A stretch of 41,581 bases of DNA from a virus. Lineage: Duplodnaviria > Caudoviricetes. The DNA lies in IMG/VR virus record IMGVR_UViG_3300025803_000022, positions 1 through 41,581 of that record; one strand, 5' to 3'. The notes under the pieces were generated by a model, which was not told the origin of the DNA, did no database searches, and saw nothing but the letters and a program-made list of their open reading frames with translations. The position numbers were made by a program, and so were the translations under genes. Positions 2,444 through 41,581 of this stretch are shown one piece after another (within the stretch, counting starts at the first letter, position 1; each line of letters begins with the position of its first letter).

Positions 2444-3391
2444 TTATTGTCTACGCCTCGTTTGCTTGCTTGCTCCTGACGCCCCGCCAGACCTACGATT
2501 GTATCGTTCATCACGATGATCATAGTCAGTCTCTTCGTATTCTAAATTCAAGGCGTACAATTCGTAGTTTGCGGCCCCTAAAGTGATGACAGCATTCACA
2601 GTCTGCCCCCGCGCCTGCTCACCGTTTACTTCTCCTGGCGTAGCAGAATACAAGTAGGTATTACCTGCACCAGGGAGTGTGATCGCGCCCCCAGAAAAAT
2701 ATATAACGTTGGTACCGATAGACTCAGTGGTTGCAAGCGGAGCTAGAGCCAGAGCAGTAGGGATATTATTGTATGCTACGGGGTTGATAACGTTTGTAAC
2801 GTTGAATTGAAAATAAGTTGTCGCAGTAGTCCCATTGGGGTTGTCTTGCACATTGGCAAAAAAGTATCTGGTAGATCCATCAGCATCTAGGTTGTACGAA
2901 TCTCCTCCATCAATAAACTGTATCTCAACAGTGTTTATGGCCCCATTGGTCACACCCTGCACCACCCCTACAAGTTTGACGTTAGCTCCCGTCAGCCTCT
3001 GATCCAGCCCGACACTGCCATACATAATTCCACCCTTCTCCTCTAAGACGGTGGCAGTAGGGTTTACCGCCTGGGCAGCTACAGTACTATCATTAACCGT
3101 CAACACGGACACGCCGTTCACGTTGTTGGTTGACTCCAAAGAAAAAGCTTTGTAAATCTTATTGCTACTCGCATTTTCGTTGAAGGTCACAGCAATAGCA
3201 CTCCCGCCCTGCGCATTGTAGAAATTAGTACGACCTGCCGTCTCACTATTGTGCTCCCATATAGGCGCCGTCCCAAAGGTTTGGTTGAAGCTAAAGAATA
3301 GGCGGTCAAGGAATGCATAGCAATAGCTATAGAAGCTATAGCGTGTCTTCCAATACCCACCTTTATGACTGAACGCTACTGTATTAGGCAT
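2444..3391 (-). CDS. C-terminal part of tail stabilisation (muzzle) protein, encoded as a separate ORF
   Basis: Likely start ATG 3391 (MPNTVAFSHKGGYWKTRYSF...WEHN...NFY...FNENASSNKIYKAFSLE), resembling the motif series that normally follows GYDP..DEY in crAss-like stabilisation proteins. Confidence 0.6.
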   Translation of the reverse strand: MPNTVAFSHKGGYWKTRYSFYSYCYAFLDRLFFSFNQTFGTAPIWEHNSETAGRTNFYNAQGGSAIAVTFNENASSNKIYKAFSLESTNNVNGVSVLTVNDSTVAAQAVNPTATVLEEKGGIMYGSVGLDQRLTGANVKLVGVVQGVTNGAINTVEIQFIDGGDSYNLDADGSTRYFFANVQDNPNGTTATTYFQFNVTNVINPVAYNNIPTALALAPLATTESIGTNVIYFSGGAITLPGAGNTYLYSATPGEVNGEQARGQTVNAVITLGAANYELYALNLEYEETDYDHRDERYNRRSGGASGASKQTRRRQ

Positions 3392-6300
3392 TACTAGGAG
3401 TTGTATAGTTAATAGCATTTACTATAGCAGTATTCACTTGGTCTTCTGTCAACTGAACGTTGTCGGCAATAGCACCAAATCGGAGAAATGGATTAAGGGA
3501 TACAGCGGGGTTAGCAATCAAGGTCGAATCAGGTATATTTTGACTGGTATAAACATCAATAAATTTTTGGGTGAGCTCAGGAGACCAACTGGTCCCTTCC
3601 TGCATGTCTGCGTAAGGCTCCATAAGAATCATAATCTCCTGCATAGCAGCGCCAGTATCACCTATAACCTGCCAAACAAACCCAGGGGGATAGGCGCCGA
3701 TAAGTAGGTTCCAGAAATTATCTCCTAAGTCCAGCCTGTCTTTCGTTTGTGAGCCACCTTCGAATACTCCAGGTGTCCCCCAATATCCAGCCTGGTATGA
3801 CGCAGATTCCCACGGGAATTCAACGGGGAATAATGATTGATCTATCCACGTATATGACCCTGTAGCTAGGTTTACGTCATATCGCCCCGCCTCTAAATTC
3901 TTTAGTTGTGCACGAACCCACGGGTATCTTTGCAGATGGAAGCCCGCTGAAGGATTCGAGTCAATCGCTACAATATTAAGATTAGCTGCCTCAGCCATAT
4001 TAATGTAGACTTGTAGCGCATCAGGCTCTGTCATCATCGTGGCTATCTGGATTCCTCGTAGACCAGCAACTTTAACGAGTGGTTGATATATTGCAAATGG
4101 GTTGAGGAAAGCACCATCAGCGTCTGTAGCGCCAGAAGAAATTAGCGCATTGCCTAAATCTTGGGACGTAAGCAATGCCTCACCAGTAATATTCAGTGGA
4201 TTAGTAAAACCGTCAAGATTCGTTAAAGCTCGGATGCCATCTGGATCATCTCGTAGACTGATGAATTGCTGTGCCAATTTTTGACTAGCAGAAAATTCAG
4301 AGGCGGATATAGTTGTAGGATCAACACCGACGTTTGGCATTTGACTCAGCAGCGTCTCTCCGATATCGGCCAAAACTTGCGCAACAAATTGGGCGCCTAG
4401 GTCTGGGGTTAGGGCATCAGCAGTCGTGGCATTGTTGGTAATAATAAACTGAATCAGAGGATCAAAATCTCGTGTTACGTCGCTGTATGTCAGGAGTCCA
4501 TCCTGAGCAATTGTATTGATGCTTGACGACTCCAACTGTGTAGATGTCACACCTGAAATAAGTGGTTCACCCCCATCGAAATTCAAGGTGGCGTCACTCA
4601 ATGCCTGTACTTGATCCGTTAGCACATCCACTTGATTGCGCAAGGTGGCATTGGCCGATGCTAAATCTGTCAAAATAGACGATAAGTTTACGCCCTCCAA
4701 TCCCAAAAGCGGAATGAATGTATCCCCTACCGTAGCCAGAAGGGAATTAAACTGATTTAATACATTGTACTCGATAGGTCCTAATGGATACGATGTTTCA
4801 GTAAAGCTACCAAAACCACCGACCAGGGTAGTCTGACCATCTGGATCGCTCAGGGTCTGAATGGTAGTACTGCCCAATACAGTCAAAGCGAATTGTTCCA
4901 GGTCAGTAATTGCTACCAGTGTTTGGTTCAGCAAAGCTGCAATATTTGGGTCATTGTTTATACCCAGCGTAGTCAGTTGCGCAATGACATTATCAAGATC
5001 GCCTGGTAGTTGGTTGATCAGCTGTAGTATTTCTGTTTCTGGACCATTTTTAATACTGGCAATGAGCTCGTTCTTTTTCTGAACGAGATAATGTTTGCGG
5101 ACTTCGACTGCACCACGCAATGAAAGATTGCCAAACAGCACCTCCCCCTCGCCTAACCTCGCTCTGTAATTGGACGCATCGATATTATTGAGATCAAAAG
5201 TCACCCAAGATGAGATCGGGTTATTAGGATTCGGATTGCCATTAATATTTTGCGGAATGCCCGTTATTGTGGTATCACCATCAAAACTTAGCTGCGAATC
5301 TCCTGGACCATTCCATGTCCATGGTCCTAGGGTTTCGCGTAAAGCAACAGGCCATATTTCCCTGACATCTACTGTAAACGGATTGAATCCGCCTCCAAGT
5401 TGGATACGGGTTGTGTAACTGCTTGGTTCATATGGATCAGCATATCCAGCCGTACCACCATTAGAGGTATCATCAATTATACCTTGATTGAATACAACAA
5501 CATCAATTTGACCCTTGCCAGAGTTGCCAATACCATCTCCATTCGGCGCTGGCCACCCATCGTTTTCGGTAGGAGAAACCCCATCGGGCGCTGTGCCACC
5601 TGTACTTATGATCTCATCCGTGTAATCTGTTGCGGGACCGCCATATGAAGTATCCCAATCAATTACGCCTTCACCTTCCTCACCAAAGCCAGAACCCCCG
5701 TCTCCGAGACCTACATCGGTCAAAAGACCCAAATTGGGCTGCGTGTATTCATTAATGCCTGGTTCTGCCAACGCCTCAGTGGTCAACACAGTAATGATAT
5801 ACTCGTCATTTAGCGGATCATATCCACTGACCACACGAACCAGGTCCCCGTAGCCGTAGTCCTCGAACACATCTACGAAGAAGGCGTTCATGCCTGCGTC
5901 AGAGATAACCTGGAGCCCGCCCTTGGGGCTGAAGCGATACACTTGCTTGTTGGTTTTGTGAGCAAAGTACACGCTGTCATCGACCTTGATAACACTCTCC
6001 CTATTGTTGTCTGCCCCTGCGTGCCCAGAAATTAATTGCTGATTGCCCACGACTTTACTGGTTGCAATCAAGCTCTCTGCCCCTAGCACATCACTAATGA
6101 TCTGTCTGTTTATAGGGAGCATACTCGCCTTATCCTCTTGCACAACAAAGAGCGAGTCGTTGTAGTTGAGCAGAGCGTTGATATTTCCAAACTCATTGGG
6201 CAGGTCTTTGAACGGAGCTAGGTATGGGTTGAACACGGTGTACCTAAGACGCCGCACACTGTAGTTATTCTCGTCGCTATAGATCACGCTAGAGAACCTG

Positions 6301-37800: not shown

Positions 37801-38942
37801 GCGAGCTGGTCCTTCGGAATCATCCCCTGTTTATTCGCACGCTTCTCCAAATCGCCCCCAATCATCAAAGCAGGAATCTGCTGAACAGGTTGAGTTGTGT
37901 TTCCGTAAACATCAGCATGCTGACGATGCTGTATTTTGCCTAGCTCATTGATAAATGCAGTCGCGCGATGCTCATCTCCAGATGGAGCAAGAGCCTGATA
38001 ATCTGCTTCGGTCATGTCCCGAAGCACTTTGTACGGCATCTTACTGGCCGCTTCGCGTGCCATTTCTTGGCCCTGATTTTGGTTACGCCTGAAGCTTATG
38101 TTTTGCCCCTCGATGCGGGCCATCTCTGGAGATCCTGGCAAACCCCTTCGCCCCAGGACAGCCTCCTCTCCAGTAAGGATTTCGGCTTCTACCGCTGCCT
38201 CTTCCGCTGCAGAGAACATACCAGAGGAGGACGGTCGGCGTCCCAGCATATCCATTCTGCGAGCCCCTTCAGGTGTCAAGCCAGAAGCGAATCTTTCCAT
38301 CTCACTTGCCATACGTCCAGGCTGGTCTACGATATCGGACGTTCGGGCCGTGTACTTAGGGTCCTTCCCCATCATACGACGGAAGAAGTTGCGTACATCT
38401 TCAGCCCCCTCACGCAGCACCCCGCCAACAGCAGGACCACTCGGCATCTTACGCATTGCTGCACTCGAAGCTGCTGCCACTATACTGGGTAGATCGTCGG
38501 CATCCACCCCATCAGCCAGCATGCGATTGATCAGTGCTGGGGTCCCAAAAGGAGTGAAGTACAAGGGAAGCTCGATAGCCTCATACCCTCTGTTCTGTGC
38601 GTCGACTACCCCCTGGGTCATATCCAGGTAGTCAGTCACACCTTGGCTCCCCAGGTTGCGATACACTGCAGCCAAATCCCCTTCTGTCCTGGCGATACGC
38701 TCAGGCAGCATAGCGTTGACGTAAGTTGGATCTGACCTGTCTGTGATGACCTCAGCTGCAGGGAGGTTGACCTGAGTTACTGGTAGATTGTACGGATCAG
38801 AAGTCGGGATCATTGTTTGACCCTGATACCTATCTAAGTAATCAAGTAGCTCTGTAACATTCGTTGGGCGACCACCGTCGTTGTACTTAGGGATTCGCTT
38901 CTTTTTTATTTGCGTCCCCTTTCGCCTACTCTTACTCAGCAT
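34875..38942 (-). CDS. Large polyvalent-type protein, putative virion-delivered cargo
   Basis: 1355 aa; IVAHYR...TLYISEMQSD..Q, IRFPTG, YDRLPKIAKKMG...WFEL motif series; basic YxxGG segments at both termini. Confidence 0.55.
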   Translation of the reverse strand: MLSKSRRKGTQIKKKRIPKYNDGGRPTNVTELLDYLDRYQGQTMIPTSDPYNLPVTQVNLPAAEVITDRSDPTYVNAMLPERIARTEGDLAAVYRNLGSQGVTDYLDMTQGVVDAQNRGYEAIELPLYFTPFGTPALINRMLADGVDADDLPSIVAAASSAAMRKMPSGPAVGGVLREGAEDVRNFFRRMMGKDPKYTARTSDIVDQPGRMASEMERFASGLTPEGARRMDMLGRRPSSSGMFSAAEEAAVEAEILTGEEAVLGRRGLPGSPEMARIEGQNISFRRNQNQGQEMAREAASKMPYKVLRDMTEADYQALAPSGDEHRATAFINELGKIQHRQHADVYGNTTQPVQQIPALMIGGDLEKRANKQGMIPKDQLAQFLEKGGLSTFDKAVLEQAMMELGTVPGKKGKEFYNLRDLRNFAAANLQERFSLDETDSYTDYGTGNLRGPKNEIQSIGTKLIVANRESEIGKSYIGASSGHWREISPDIVAHYRGFVRGGNLADTRTLYISEMQSDVAQSGRFLKDSYDYVKDFPQDIMRQAPDENGVMRYTYQFPDDAYDSARRYAFRNLPEARNPHELFFNMPVEFDIEATAPSGYDDVMEQIKDVLGDGVITPENEFLYDVNYWMGLQGQVRDLYRTYRDLNKNSKGIARRFYQEAIKVWQDGHPGLELEWLDSTSPDLSNIAIDMEIAIEDIIEALQKNDVNPPGTFTNAYIQSSYDQSLEVLKDLLERQQGYDAEMAMVFHDGTYRDMEIGSEYPAQDEKIQSHFVKNQDEFLLSQIIQQNSQYKAIRFPTGQTTGIIQGFFRSPVRFEQEIQRTRESIEHLRGDVTRANNLIDNPEGGIEGFKSVFQDGSTTYFGDQIDALGPVTQELLFGTKIVGDSGKPRFTDIEGYTQRTPDGATMADPVLDRVVYYPGNTESAIYEGKVSPQMQKDVHLYNFMTFVNAFQQGRVRTNIADLRAQEFREAAEYVASTLPREPGRLHSNVNYVMQIYAVDPKYPGTGQDMLGKYERFKGSSDMDLIIDTLIDRVESFANSNPHDFTGIPQIPRLEAEAYLNGDFLEHPAYKLYIDANDPGGLLFQKKVIDEFSSHLAYKGHFNPWKFGDELNFSVGDLVYHYIENYGIMPSNSASQIAKNQKAKQLTELTFGEGSHRSLGWNSGFGGGYGESQKLIFMPIAQTPGGPQRAGAMIQELGYMVTESELQDFLAQKAVELNKLGGAIGDNAASIRGLISFRTGIENLGYSLKRGAISHGDIGSQQTHLQSQEDQLRAILNGEGIRDDLKTVMNSYDRLPKIAKKMGYNLKPVTDQHGNEWFELKVPKSMQRGEGEVRGYKYGGRVRVKKRKPMKVIKR

Positions 38943-40270
38943 TACTTCTTCTTAATCTTGTATGGGATTTTACCACCGTATTCGTTACGCATAGTTGGTG
39001 AAGCTAAGTCTTCAGGGGATAGGCCCACGCGAAGCTGGTTGATGCGATCAATCATATCGCGCATGTAGTTGTCACTTGGCATACGGCCATATTGGTTACG
39101 GAAATCCTGAACGGCCTGTAGCGCCATCCGAACCACAGCTGCATCGTCCATGTCATCCGTATATTGCACTGCCGCCCTAACTATATCCTCCCTTTCGGAC
39201 TTTAGTGCATCAAGCTTTGCTTTAGCAGTTGCGCGATCTGCAAGAGGCCCATTGATAGCATCGAACTCTAGCTCATCAATTTGTTTTTGTAAATCCTGTA
39301 GCACGTCACTAGCAGCCAAATTGCCACGACGTAGAGACTCCTCCAACGGCATCCCGCCACGGCGGCTTGCTGCGCTGACGATCTCTCGATCACTCAAAGG
39401 ATACATCTCACCATACCCCATTACCGTAAAGGGTTCCTCGCTACCATCCACATACCCATAACCATGTCCATACCCATACATCATCTCCACATTGTTGATC
39501 TCCTTGTTGACTAGGTCGCGTGCATCTTGTAGAGTAGCCCCTGGCTTCAACATCCCATCTTCAATCATCTCATCAATGAGGGGCTGCTGGATTGCAGGAT
39601 CGAGAGTGTCATCAAACAACATAGAAACTTGTTTCCGTTGCATATTTGCAATGTTGCTTGTTGCGAGGTTATCTATTGGCCTAGCAATCCCTTGCCTATC
39701 AGCACCAGCCTTCAAGTCGGTGTTTAGGTTGGCAGTAGGGGAGTTTTGACGGTACATACCACTCAACTGACTTTCCGTCGGGGTGGGGAGGACACGTCCT
39801 CTGATAGCCTTGTACGCATCAGCGCCATACCGACCCATAGCCCCAGGGAGCAGTGCAAGCAGTGCCCCTAGTCCTGCTGCATCATAATCCTGGTTGTAGG
39901 CATCGCGACCGATGTACCCTGCCTCCATCAGGTCCCCTAGTATTGGCGTCATACCTGCAGCAAACTCCCCCATCTGCGATTTCATCTGGTCTGCAGTCCC
40001 CCCAGGGCGCATAAACTCGCGTTGACGCTGTTCTTCTGCGCTATAGAACCTTTGACCCCCACCAATTGACCTTTGTGTGGGTGGGGTGTAGTTACGCAAG
40101 TCAGGACGCGCAGGTTCTGGGGGTGTCGTCCTGCGCATTTGGTTAGTGCGGATGTCCTCATCTTGCGATGTAGGTGCAATGGTAGAGGGGCGGAGATCGT
40201 AGCTGAGAGCATCAAGCAACTCCCTGACATTTGTAGGGTAACCCCCGTCTTGCAACTTCTTGATTTTCAT
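38942..40270 (-). CDS. Putative virion-delivered protein with pre-toxin-like hydrophobic hairpin
   Basis: 442 aa; leader shared with the 1355-aa protein; AGMTPILGD...DYDAAGLGALLALLPG; C-terminal EYGGKIPYKIKKK. Confidence 0.5.
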   Translation of the reverse strand: MKIKKLQDGGYPTNVRELLDALSYDLRPSTIAPTSQDEDIRTNQMRRTTPPEPARPDLRNYTPPTQRSIGGGQRFYSAEEQRQREFMRPGGTADQMKSQMGEFAAGMTPILGDLMEAGYIGRDAYNQDYDAAGLGALLALLPGAMGRYGADAYKAIRGRVLPTPTESQLSGMYRQNSPTANLNTDLKAGADRQGIARPIDNLATSNIANMQRKQVSMLFDDTLDPAIQQPLIDEMIEDGMLKPGATLQDARDLVNKEINNVEMMYGYGHGYGYVDGSEEPFTVMGYGEMYPLSDREIVSAASRRGGMPLEESLRRGNLAASDVLQDLQKQIDELEFDAINGPLADRATAKAKLDALKSEREDIVRAAVQYTDDMDDAAVVRMALQAVQDFRNQYGRMPSDNYMRDMIDRINQLRVGLSPEDLASPTMRNEYGGKIPYKIKKK

Positions 40271-40282: not shown

Positions 40283-40822
40283 ATAATCCTTACCACTGCC
40301 TCGAACACCAAGGAATCAGTTCAGGTCAGTGCACAAGTGACCCGTATTCACCAAAAGAGCCACCCAAATTTCGTAGGTTCACTGTGTCAACCTCCCCATT
40401 TATCCGTCTCTCTAAGTCAAAGTTACACCAAAAAATTGACATTGTCAAATCCCCCTCTGTAATAGACGCACAACAGACAAAATCCTGGGATATAGACGTA
40501 GTATGAACAAGGGAAATAGACAATTGTCTAAAACTATGGCACATTCCTCTCTTTTTTTTCTACAACTTCCCAACTGTACAAAACTCGTCGAGAGAATTCA
40601 GAGGGGAAATCCACCAGGAGGGCACAAGAAAACAGCTTTTGAAGTAAATACCGAAGAAGGGGTGAGAAAAAAGGTTTGAACAACAGAGATCGGGGATTAT
40701 ATAATTTACGCGGCGTTGGCGGCGGCGACCGAAACCGACTCGACTTGGTGGCGTTTTGTGTTAGTATTTGTATTTCCAGGACTTTTCAGCTTTTTAATTG
40801 CAATAGTAACAGTACTATCCCC

Positions 40823-40840
40823 CTGATTATCAGCGACTTA
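40823..40840. promoter_or_regulatory. IHF-like binding site, copy 1
   Basis: CTGATTATCAGCGACTTA contains an exact match to WATCARNNNNTTR. Confidence 0.45.
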
Positions 40841-41144: not shown

Positions 41145-41177
41145 TTTGGTATTGTCGAAAACACGTCACTAACTTTG
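41145..41177 (+). promoter_or_regulatory. Complete Bacteroidota primary-sigma promoter (-33/-7)
   Basis: TTTG (41145-41148), 21-nt spacer, TAACTTTG (41170-41177). Confidence 0.7.
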
Positions 41178-41181
41178 ACGG

Positions 41182-41581
41182 CGTCAGACGTCGACGGGGC
41201 AAAGGCTCCTATATAGCGGCGAACGATACGACACCATCAGGTGCGTACATAGTGTCTCATTAGCCTACGACGTTAGAACAACGGCAAATGCCCTACCTTC
41301 TAACCTTTGTGTGTCAAGTAGTCCCCGACGGATAACGGGGGCGAAAGTATAGAAGCACACACGGAAAAGTCGAACACGGAATATATCCACCGTGCAAAGG
41401 TTGACCCTACCCAATACAGGGAACTTAAATAATGAGTCACGGAACGTCTACGGAATACCTTAATAGGTAGCGTAGACGGTGCGGTATGTAGTGCCCCCCT
41501 TATTACACGGGGCTACATTGACCGTGCTGAAGTAACCCATCCACAGGGAGAACGCGAATTGTGCGCAAGTAGCGCACATCG
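41182..41581 (+). ncRNA. Candidate large structured non-coding RNA (probably truncated by the window end)
   Basis: Starts at the predicted TSS; no ORF of 60 aa or more; more than 10 consecutive or nested helices identified by eye. Confidence 0.6.

Follow-up and report, generated by a model that had tools for sequence, protein, structure and literature searches.

The window, that is, the whole stretch of DNA analysed here, is an entire virus contig of 41,581 bp whose long ORFs lie on the minus strand and include terminase, portal and virion proteins. Identity of the terminase is 49% with an environmental podophage, 42% with Flavobacterium elemo phages and 34-36% with Cellulophaga phages; gut crAss-like phages are weaker. 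At least half of the words of the window are present in 18 runs, 17 of them freshwater and one marine, and two are possibly its source. To judge from its sequence, the phage is an uncultured, aquatic relative of Bacteroidota podophages. The terminase relatives, together with the promoter type, point to a Bacteroidota host.

The minus-strand genes border a gene-free gap, in which a first-pass annotation had listed a candidate large noncoding RNA without ORFs, ending at 41581. Indeed, no ORF of at least 60 aa overlaps 41180-41581. The end at 41581 is only the end of the contig, which cuts the RNA: the window holds its 5' 60%, and it is about 250 nt longer in two other contigs, L001 and L127, see Table 1. 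L001 is 99.8% identical to the window over 3.6 kb, and both contigs stay gene-free for about 270 nt more before an ORF begins. Besides more RNA, the sequence past 41581 reveals two things that the annotation had missed, a tRNA-like 3' module and the absence of a terminator; no plus-strand terminator-like site is found after the RNA, and the first 4.4 kb of either genome scanned contain no plus-strand intrinsic terminator.

Table 1. Features at the locus. Positions without a contig name are those of the window.
Feature	Position	Strand	Remarks
First gene of late/virion arm	38942..40270	-	442 aa, no family; terminase and portal further along the arm
Divergent promoter, same type as the next, towards late arm	40417..40449	-	perfect pattern match
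Promoter, presumably Bacteroidota-type -33/-7, pattern TTTG-N21-TAACTTTG	41145..41177	+	perfect pattern match
5' part of RNA, 402 nt	41180..41581	+	402/402 identical to L127
Two 5' hairpins	41196-41209, 41227-41247	+	first: compensatory change in L125, replaced in L129
5' domain	41252..41440	+	closing long-range helix 41252-62/41430-40, 6 of 10 pairs changed on both sides
Inside 5' domain	helix 41272/41304, short helix 41263/41401, variable arm 41305-41398, hairpin 41405-41421	+	
Two covarying arms	41445/41478, 41479/41527	+	
Invariant purine-rich linker	41529-39	+	
5' strand of 6-bp long-range helix	41540-45	+	paired in 5/5 sequences, 4 of 6 pairs changed on both sides
Hairpin	41560-41578	+	
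Whole RNA, ~650 nt	L127 577-1229 = L001 9091 to 8439	minus in L001	gene-free
Parts of RNA past the window			in order: 3' domain rich in predicted pseudoknots, tRNA-like module, terminal hairpin
tRNA-like module	L127 1159-1213		
Terminal hairpin	L127 1214-1229		abuts module
First ORF of opposite arm	starts L127 1253		23 nt after RNA end
RadC-like JAB-domain gene	L001 7009-6560	minus	early arm, E 5e-26

The arm beyond the window is a run of short plus-strand genes, opened by an ORF of 144 aa (L001/L127). These are predicted to be early genes, and from the gene order we infer that the RNA, too, is expressed early in infection. The polymerase motif D[FY]DxD is absent from frames longer than 300 aa in the window, in L001 and in a complete relative, G002.

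The 144-aa protein has seven close and two more distant relatives. Scans with alignments of it, from which 2 of 107, 5 of 123 and 3 of 132 candidate stretches were retained, underlie the four lineages used below: A (the window, L001, L124, L126 and L127), B (L125, which sits in a complete 61-kb genome, and L130), C (L129) and the distant D (L351). L128 begins inside the ORF, so it has no upstream DNA. The protein itself has no significant Pfam match, no PDB fold match and no Atlas match, and its structure model is of medium quality (pLDDT 68); an RNA-binding role cannot be claimed for it.

In all four lineages the RNA slot precedes the same orphan gene. The RNAs of A, B and C, of about 650, 630 and 720 nt, can be aligned, with identity rising from 55-57% over the first 220 nt to 74-81% over the last 230 nt, and 60-66% for the whole. 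Lineage D has at the same place a gene-free stretch of 590 nt that folds with a z-score of -4.64, and its body shows 51.8% identity to that of A, which is the random level (51-52%).

The pattern TTTG-N21-TAACTTTG has only two perfect matches in the window, back to back across the gene-free gap. One lies at 41145-41177, where the annotation had placed a consensus promoter upstream of the RNA, and we take it to be a Bacteroidota -33/-7 promoter. The proposed divergence from the late arm also holds, with the second promoter, at 40449, pointing the opposite way. A matching -7 box lies just 5' of the RNA in L125 and L129; it is not clear in L351.

There are further conserved elements upstream. A 7-base motif in the promoter spacer (41156-41162) is kept in L125 and L129, while several copies of it lie upstream in L351; it could bind a regulator. 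Between the divergent promoters, L125 shares a block of about 100 bp (40685-40790), whose first part is conserved in L351 as well; it is possibly an origin or packaging signal. IHF-like sites are found about 270-350 bp 5' of the RNA in three lineages (window 40828-40840, L125 and L351). The window as a whole has nine such matches, so that these sites may be due to chance.

The RNA in the window folds better than chance, with a z-score of -3.79 and none of 100 shuffles as good. However, the minus strand of the region folds almost alike (z -3.48), so that energy alone gives no strand. Folded alone, the 3' half of the RNA of lineage A is no better than shuffles (z -1.0).

Further evidence comes from the homologues. 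RNAalifold, run on a MAFFT alignment of them (A2), gives 123 pairs, of which 37 have changes on both sides. In a hand-drawn structure of 162 pairs, chosen while viewing the same sequences, compensatory changes among the three alignable lineages affect 50 pairs, as against 28.1 +/- 3.4 in shuffles (0/500 as high), and 90.8% of the cells pair, compared with 29-48% when the structure is slid. The tool warns that relatedness inflates the covariation score, and because the helices are hand-chosen and only three lineages are independent, the test leans favourable. Variation within the species disrupts a single pair in each of two helices. Altogether, a structured RNA is almost certainly real.

Two loops in the window may reach beyond it. 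Loop 41293-97 is complementary to an invariant strand past 41581, and so are five bases of the invariant 10-nt loop 41499-41508 on arm 41479/41527. For the latter loop a pseudoknot is predicted from complementarity; covariation is impossible there since the strands are invariant. Invariant single-stranded blocks are seen at 41499-508 and 41529-39 and at two places beyond the window, and the complementary ones suggest three pseudoknots in all. These are predictions only, because hardly any variation occurs in two of them and the third aligns badly (75% paired).

The picture of a large RNA with many junctions, which the annotation had drawn from a single sequence, agrees with the covarying homologues and with RNA-library contigs that fall within it, see below. 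The individual helices fare less evenly. All 17 that were checked pair fully in the window, but some share bases, those at 41272-73 and 41302-04 being unable to coexist, and several long-range ones are not conserved. Conservation was judged on a sequence-only alignment, which does not reach the helices of the variable arm (41305-41398). In at least one other lineage, no more than one pair is lost from each of the helices at 41196, 41272, 41405, 41445 and 41560. In contrast, of the 6 pairs of helix 41188/41273 the two other lineages retain 0 and 4, of the 8 pairs of helix 41302/41402 they retain 4 and 5, and of the 5 pairs of helix 41423/41437 they retain 0-3. Helix 41438/41526 retains 3-4 of its 5 pairs, whereas helix 41479/41527, which competes with it, retains 6 of 7.

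The strand follows from the kind of pairs that replace each other. Across 22 helices the other lineages contain 9, 7 and 7 G.U pairs on the plus strand, versus 0, 1 and 0 A.C pairs; hence the plus strand is the RNA strand. This bias bears on whether the element acts as DNA, for example as an origin, packaging or ejection signal whose hairpins form in single-stranded DNA. The position at the point where the arms diverge, beside the conserved upstream block and the IHF-like sites, is what such an element might have, and both strands do fold similarly. A G.U bias on one strand, a T-loop, a promoter at the 5' edge and contigs from RNA libraries are hard to reconcile with it, and we consider a DNA element very improbable.

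The most constant part of the RNA is its 3' module. All five loci have an acceptor-like helix of 8 positions, a GGA loop, a variable arm, a T-stem of 5-6 bp with a canonical T-loop and, abutting the module, a hairpin; the start codon follows 23 nt past this hairpin in A and D. The middle arm varies in sequence and in length, with 22-27 nt between acceptor and T-stem. There is no canonical anticodon arm and no common anticodon, the GGA loop lies inside a real D-stem only in L351, and the acceptor helix is followed by neither CCA nor a U-tract. L125 and L130 (lineage B) have a mismatch in the T-stem, and MFE folding gives a clean tRNA shape only in L351.

Lineage D keeps this module behind an unrelated structured body. 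In its acceptor helix both sides are changed at four of the eight positions and all eight are still paired. A covariance model built without this lineage (R1) ranks the L351 module first of nine weak matches, at 13.3 bits, where the best match in a tRNA cluster of the control locus scores 11.6 bits; as the score is weak, homology of the module in D rests on position, pairing and shared hairpin ends. Since the module is conserved while the body is not, it seems to be kept independently of the body, like a processing handle. The L351 body itself (3373-3880, about 510 nt, no Rfam match) is a candidate family in its own right.

Just 5' of the module is a 9-nt strand, invariant in three lineages, with three possible partners. 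Pairing with an upstream loop gives -7.6 to -9.8 kcal/mol and with the leader of the first ORF -4.9 to -9.2 kcal/mol; in L351 both are weak, at about -4. The strand 5' of the module pairs with the trailer at -6.4 to -6.7 kcal/mol in all five loci. A switch among four strands, the terminal hairpin included, was discarded, as it would break a stem and is unalignable in L351, and a permuted tmRNA was rejected on the grounds that CCA is missing and the T-stem does not adjoin the hairpin.

Next to known families, the RNA stands apart. A scan with the 4227 models of Rfam 15, at the cut-offs and at loose E-values, gives no match for the window, the full RNA or three relatives, and the best matches to group I and II introns, known ribozymes and riboswitches are short and far below cut-off. 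Bacterial Y RNA has no Rfam match here either. The GOLLD model (RF02032) finds nothing at E <= 10 in two genomes or in the L351 record, and detects its controls Bongo and Rey at 216 and 182 bits; the ROOL model (RF03087) likewise finds nothing at E <= 10 in two genomes and scores 130 bits on its control, L350. For tmRNA (RF00023) there is no match at E <= 1 in three virus records, with the phi14:2 control at 46 bits. Thus the annotation was right that no known class can be assigned. Gathering mode missed the ROOL of L350, which E-value mode found; our negatives therefore rest on E-value mode, and gathering-mode negatives for large RNAs are unsafe. GOLLD was absent from 151 Bacilli genomes, so that set provides no control.

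ARAGORN finds no tRNA gene in the window, in L001 or in the complete G002; in G005 there is one tRNA-Arg, about 12 kb away. The module also departs from tRNA (RF00005) in its 8-position acceptor, in having a D-stem only in L351 and in its variable middle arm.

GOLLD and ROOL are phage-encoded RNAs of 600-700 nt with many junctions and predicted pseudoknots (PMC12286853, PMC5737381), as is the RNA described here, and GOLLD has a variable 5' and a conserved 3' half (PMC12286853), again as here. Unlike them, this RNA stands at the head of an operon, has a tRNA mimic at its end, lacks a terminator and lies away from tRNA arrays; the models do not match, the motifs differ, and a multimeric cage is for this RNA only conjectural. 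The tRNA-like domains of tmRNA and Y RNA share with the module an acceptor/T-arm stack, a GG-containing loop and, in three lineages, the lack of a D-stem. The module, in contrast to tmRNA, closes locally and not by pairing of the two ends of the RNA, and has no CCA.

Could it nevertheless be a very diverged GOLLD, ROOL or tmRNA? Its size and the GOLLD-like 5'/3' conservation fit, as do a T-arm near the 3' end and the tmRNA-like gene of the crAss-like phage phi14:2. The idea is largely refuted, and we rate it as extremely improbable, by the silence of models whose controls score well, by the absence of the consensus motifs compared with the RNA by eye, by the missing CCA end and by the negative ARAGORN result.

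The best sub-threshold Rfam match is instead to mascRNA (RF01684), on the module of L129, with 25.6 bits (E 0.14, cut-off 42.5). A mascRNA-like layout, with an acceptor/T-arm stack, a T-loop, a GG loop and no CCA, 3' of a long RNA, is found at all five loci. According to PMC8457004, mascRNA and menRNA are likewise small tRNA mimics that end long RNAs (at the 3' end of MALAT1 and MEN-beta). Shared as well are the lack of a canonical anticodon arm and of an encoded CCA, and a possible leader-trailer pairing. The mammalian mascRNA differs in that the phage RNA has an acceptor helix of 8 positions and a hairpin trailer followed by an ORF, with no triple helix seen, and the resemblance is best regarded as analogy, not homology. 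RNase P cuts at mascRNA and requires leader-trailer pairing for it (PMC8457004), and PMC4919922 adds tmRNA, OLE and phage RNAs to its substrates. Other literature consulted comprises bioRxiv 2024.12.08.627333, PMC12990946, PMC6582537, PMC8375218 and bioRxiv 2026.09.22.753630.

Expression was studied by mapping metatranscriptomes to 20 kb of L001, using runs selected with the RNA region itself. Two freshwater metatranscriptomes from different studies yield three contigs of 151-192 nt at depth 3-6, all inside the RNA, and one of them lies wholly past the stretch used for picking the runs. Two marine RNA runs (X21 and X22) have nothing on the RNA; matches of 30 nt from X22 at L001 16230 look spurious. 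The support is weak because the runs were found with this RNA, and since the contigs carry no strand, ends or level they are a hint of expression. That no RNA-library contig maps to the remaining 19 kb of L001 is no proof of anything by itself.

We propose that the RNA is a host-transcribed early leader that is cut at the tRNA mimic, which would free a stable body acting in trans. As a whole, this reading stands in even balance with all others taken together. Host RNA polymerase would start near 41182 and read through into the first gene. The T-loop and the GGA loop could then form a tRNA elbow on an acceptor/T stack of 13-14 positions, and RNase P would cut on the 5' side of the module, in the way it does at mascRNA in MALAT1. 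The downstream mRNA would retain the abutting hairpin and be protected by it. The weakest step is the next one, where the freed body, which has invariant loops and linkers rich in A, would adopt a compact fold; it might finally work as an RNA-only scaffold or decoy, as proposed for GOLLD and ROOL. Of its parts, we hold processing at the tRNA-like module to be slightly favoured, and action of the body in trans to fall a little short of even.

Release is favoured mainly because the module survives behind an unrelated body. The main doubts are the missing CCA and the lack of a mapped end; the 3' side of the module is also locked in the hairpin, and the RNA-library data are contigs only. Reportedly, the RNase P of E. 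coli cannot do without CCA in vivo (a study cited in PMC4919922).

The chief rival is a leader acting in cis, which would remain on the early transcript and work by antitermination or as a folding switch over the first start codon. With no terminator between the RNA and the gene that it precedes in every lineage, with the next promoter match about 7.9 kb downstream and with a 9-nt strand that has alternative partners, such a role has some support. However, the lack of plus-strand terminators in the first 4.4 kb leaves nothing obvious to read through, the two alternative pairings are weak in L351, and the L351 body is unrelated though the gene is the same. We see a cis-acting leader as rather unlikely.

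The mimic could also be the product itself, a decoy for host defences that cut tRNA or for tRNA-binding proteins, with the body as a carrier. The module is the only part common to all four lineages, and the complete relative G002 has no tRNA gene of its own. Its variable middle arm, the lack of a shared anticodon and of CCA, and a body strongly conserved in three lineages, needless for a mere carrier, make this improbable.

Going beyond release as such, the locus might be a modular cassette, with a host promoter, an exchangeable folded RNA of 500-600 nt and a fixed tRNA-mimic release tag that passes the RNA on to the tRNA-processing machinery of the host as infection starts. The body would then belong to a new class of assemblies or catalysts made of RNA alone, by which some host function is disarmed or redirected, and the same slot in L351 would be filled by a second, unrelated class. 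This extended form we regard as speculative and somewhat unlikely. Still, two unrelated bodies in one promoter-to-module slot before the same gene suggest that phages exchange large RNAs like accessory genes.

Large and intricately folded RNAs of bacteria and phages are rare. What we describe is an uncatalogued family of large phage RNAs with a tRNA-mimic 3' tag. It adds a family of GOLLD/ROOL size with a built-in handle, the mimic predicting cut site, enzyme and product length.

Further members are scarce. In pattern scans, one locus (L122) was real among the matches listed (at least 120 loci), a second scan gave the known contig only, and others gave 2 of 19 and 2 of 120 real loci. Another, of 24 loci, gave three real ones, all known before, the remainder being tRNAs, tRNA-like or coding; among GTDB genomes 0 of 80 had anything past the motif itself. 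Searches of 50,697 phage records by blastn with three RNA queries and by tblastn with the 144-aa protein gave no match. Neither did model R1 in 151 genomes of the order of G004, nor the protein alignment in 401 genomes of its phylum. On parts of MW202828, elemoE, phi46:3 and phi14:2 the model reaches T-loop-level scores only. The literature searched contains no account of this RNA; supplementary candidate lists (e.g. PMC8040213) and most subscription papers lay outside that search. No cultured phage with this RNA was found, which limits work in vivo, while cleavage in vitro, probing and cryo-EM need the sequence only.

Long noncoding RNAs occur in another Bacteroidota phage, the Cellulophaga crAss-like phi14:2, where they are reported as early, abundant and persistent (bioRxiv 10.1101/2020.03.07.982082). 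Like the RNA studied here they are long, intergenic and near the start of the early region. In contrast, similarity is limited to the T-loop, and the phi14:2 early genes are read by a virion polymerase, while a host-type promoter is found here.

Two further observations concern phi14:2 and MW202828. In phi14:2 (NC_021806; L383), positions 4031-4502, a long gene-free part of the early region not annotated as tmRNA in the stretch fetched, match tmRNA with 46 bits (cut-off 47, E 7e-16), and this is probably one of the two long noncoding RNAs left unexplained in the 2020 preprint. In MW202828 (L352), two unannotated tRNA-like pieces that contain a T-loop lie between convergent genes at 584-689.
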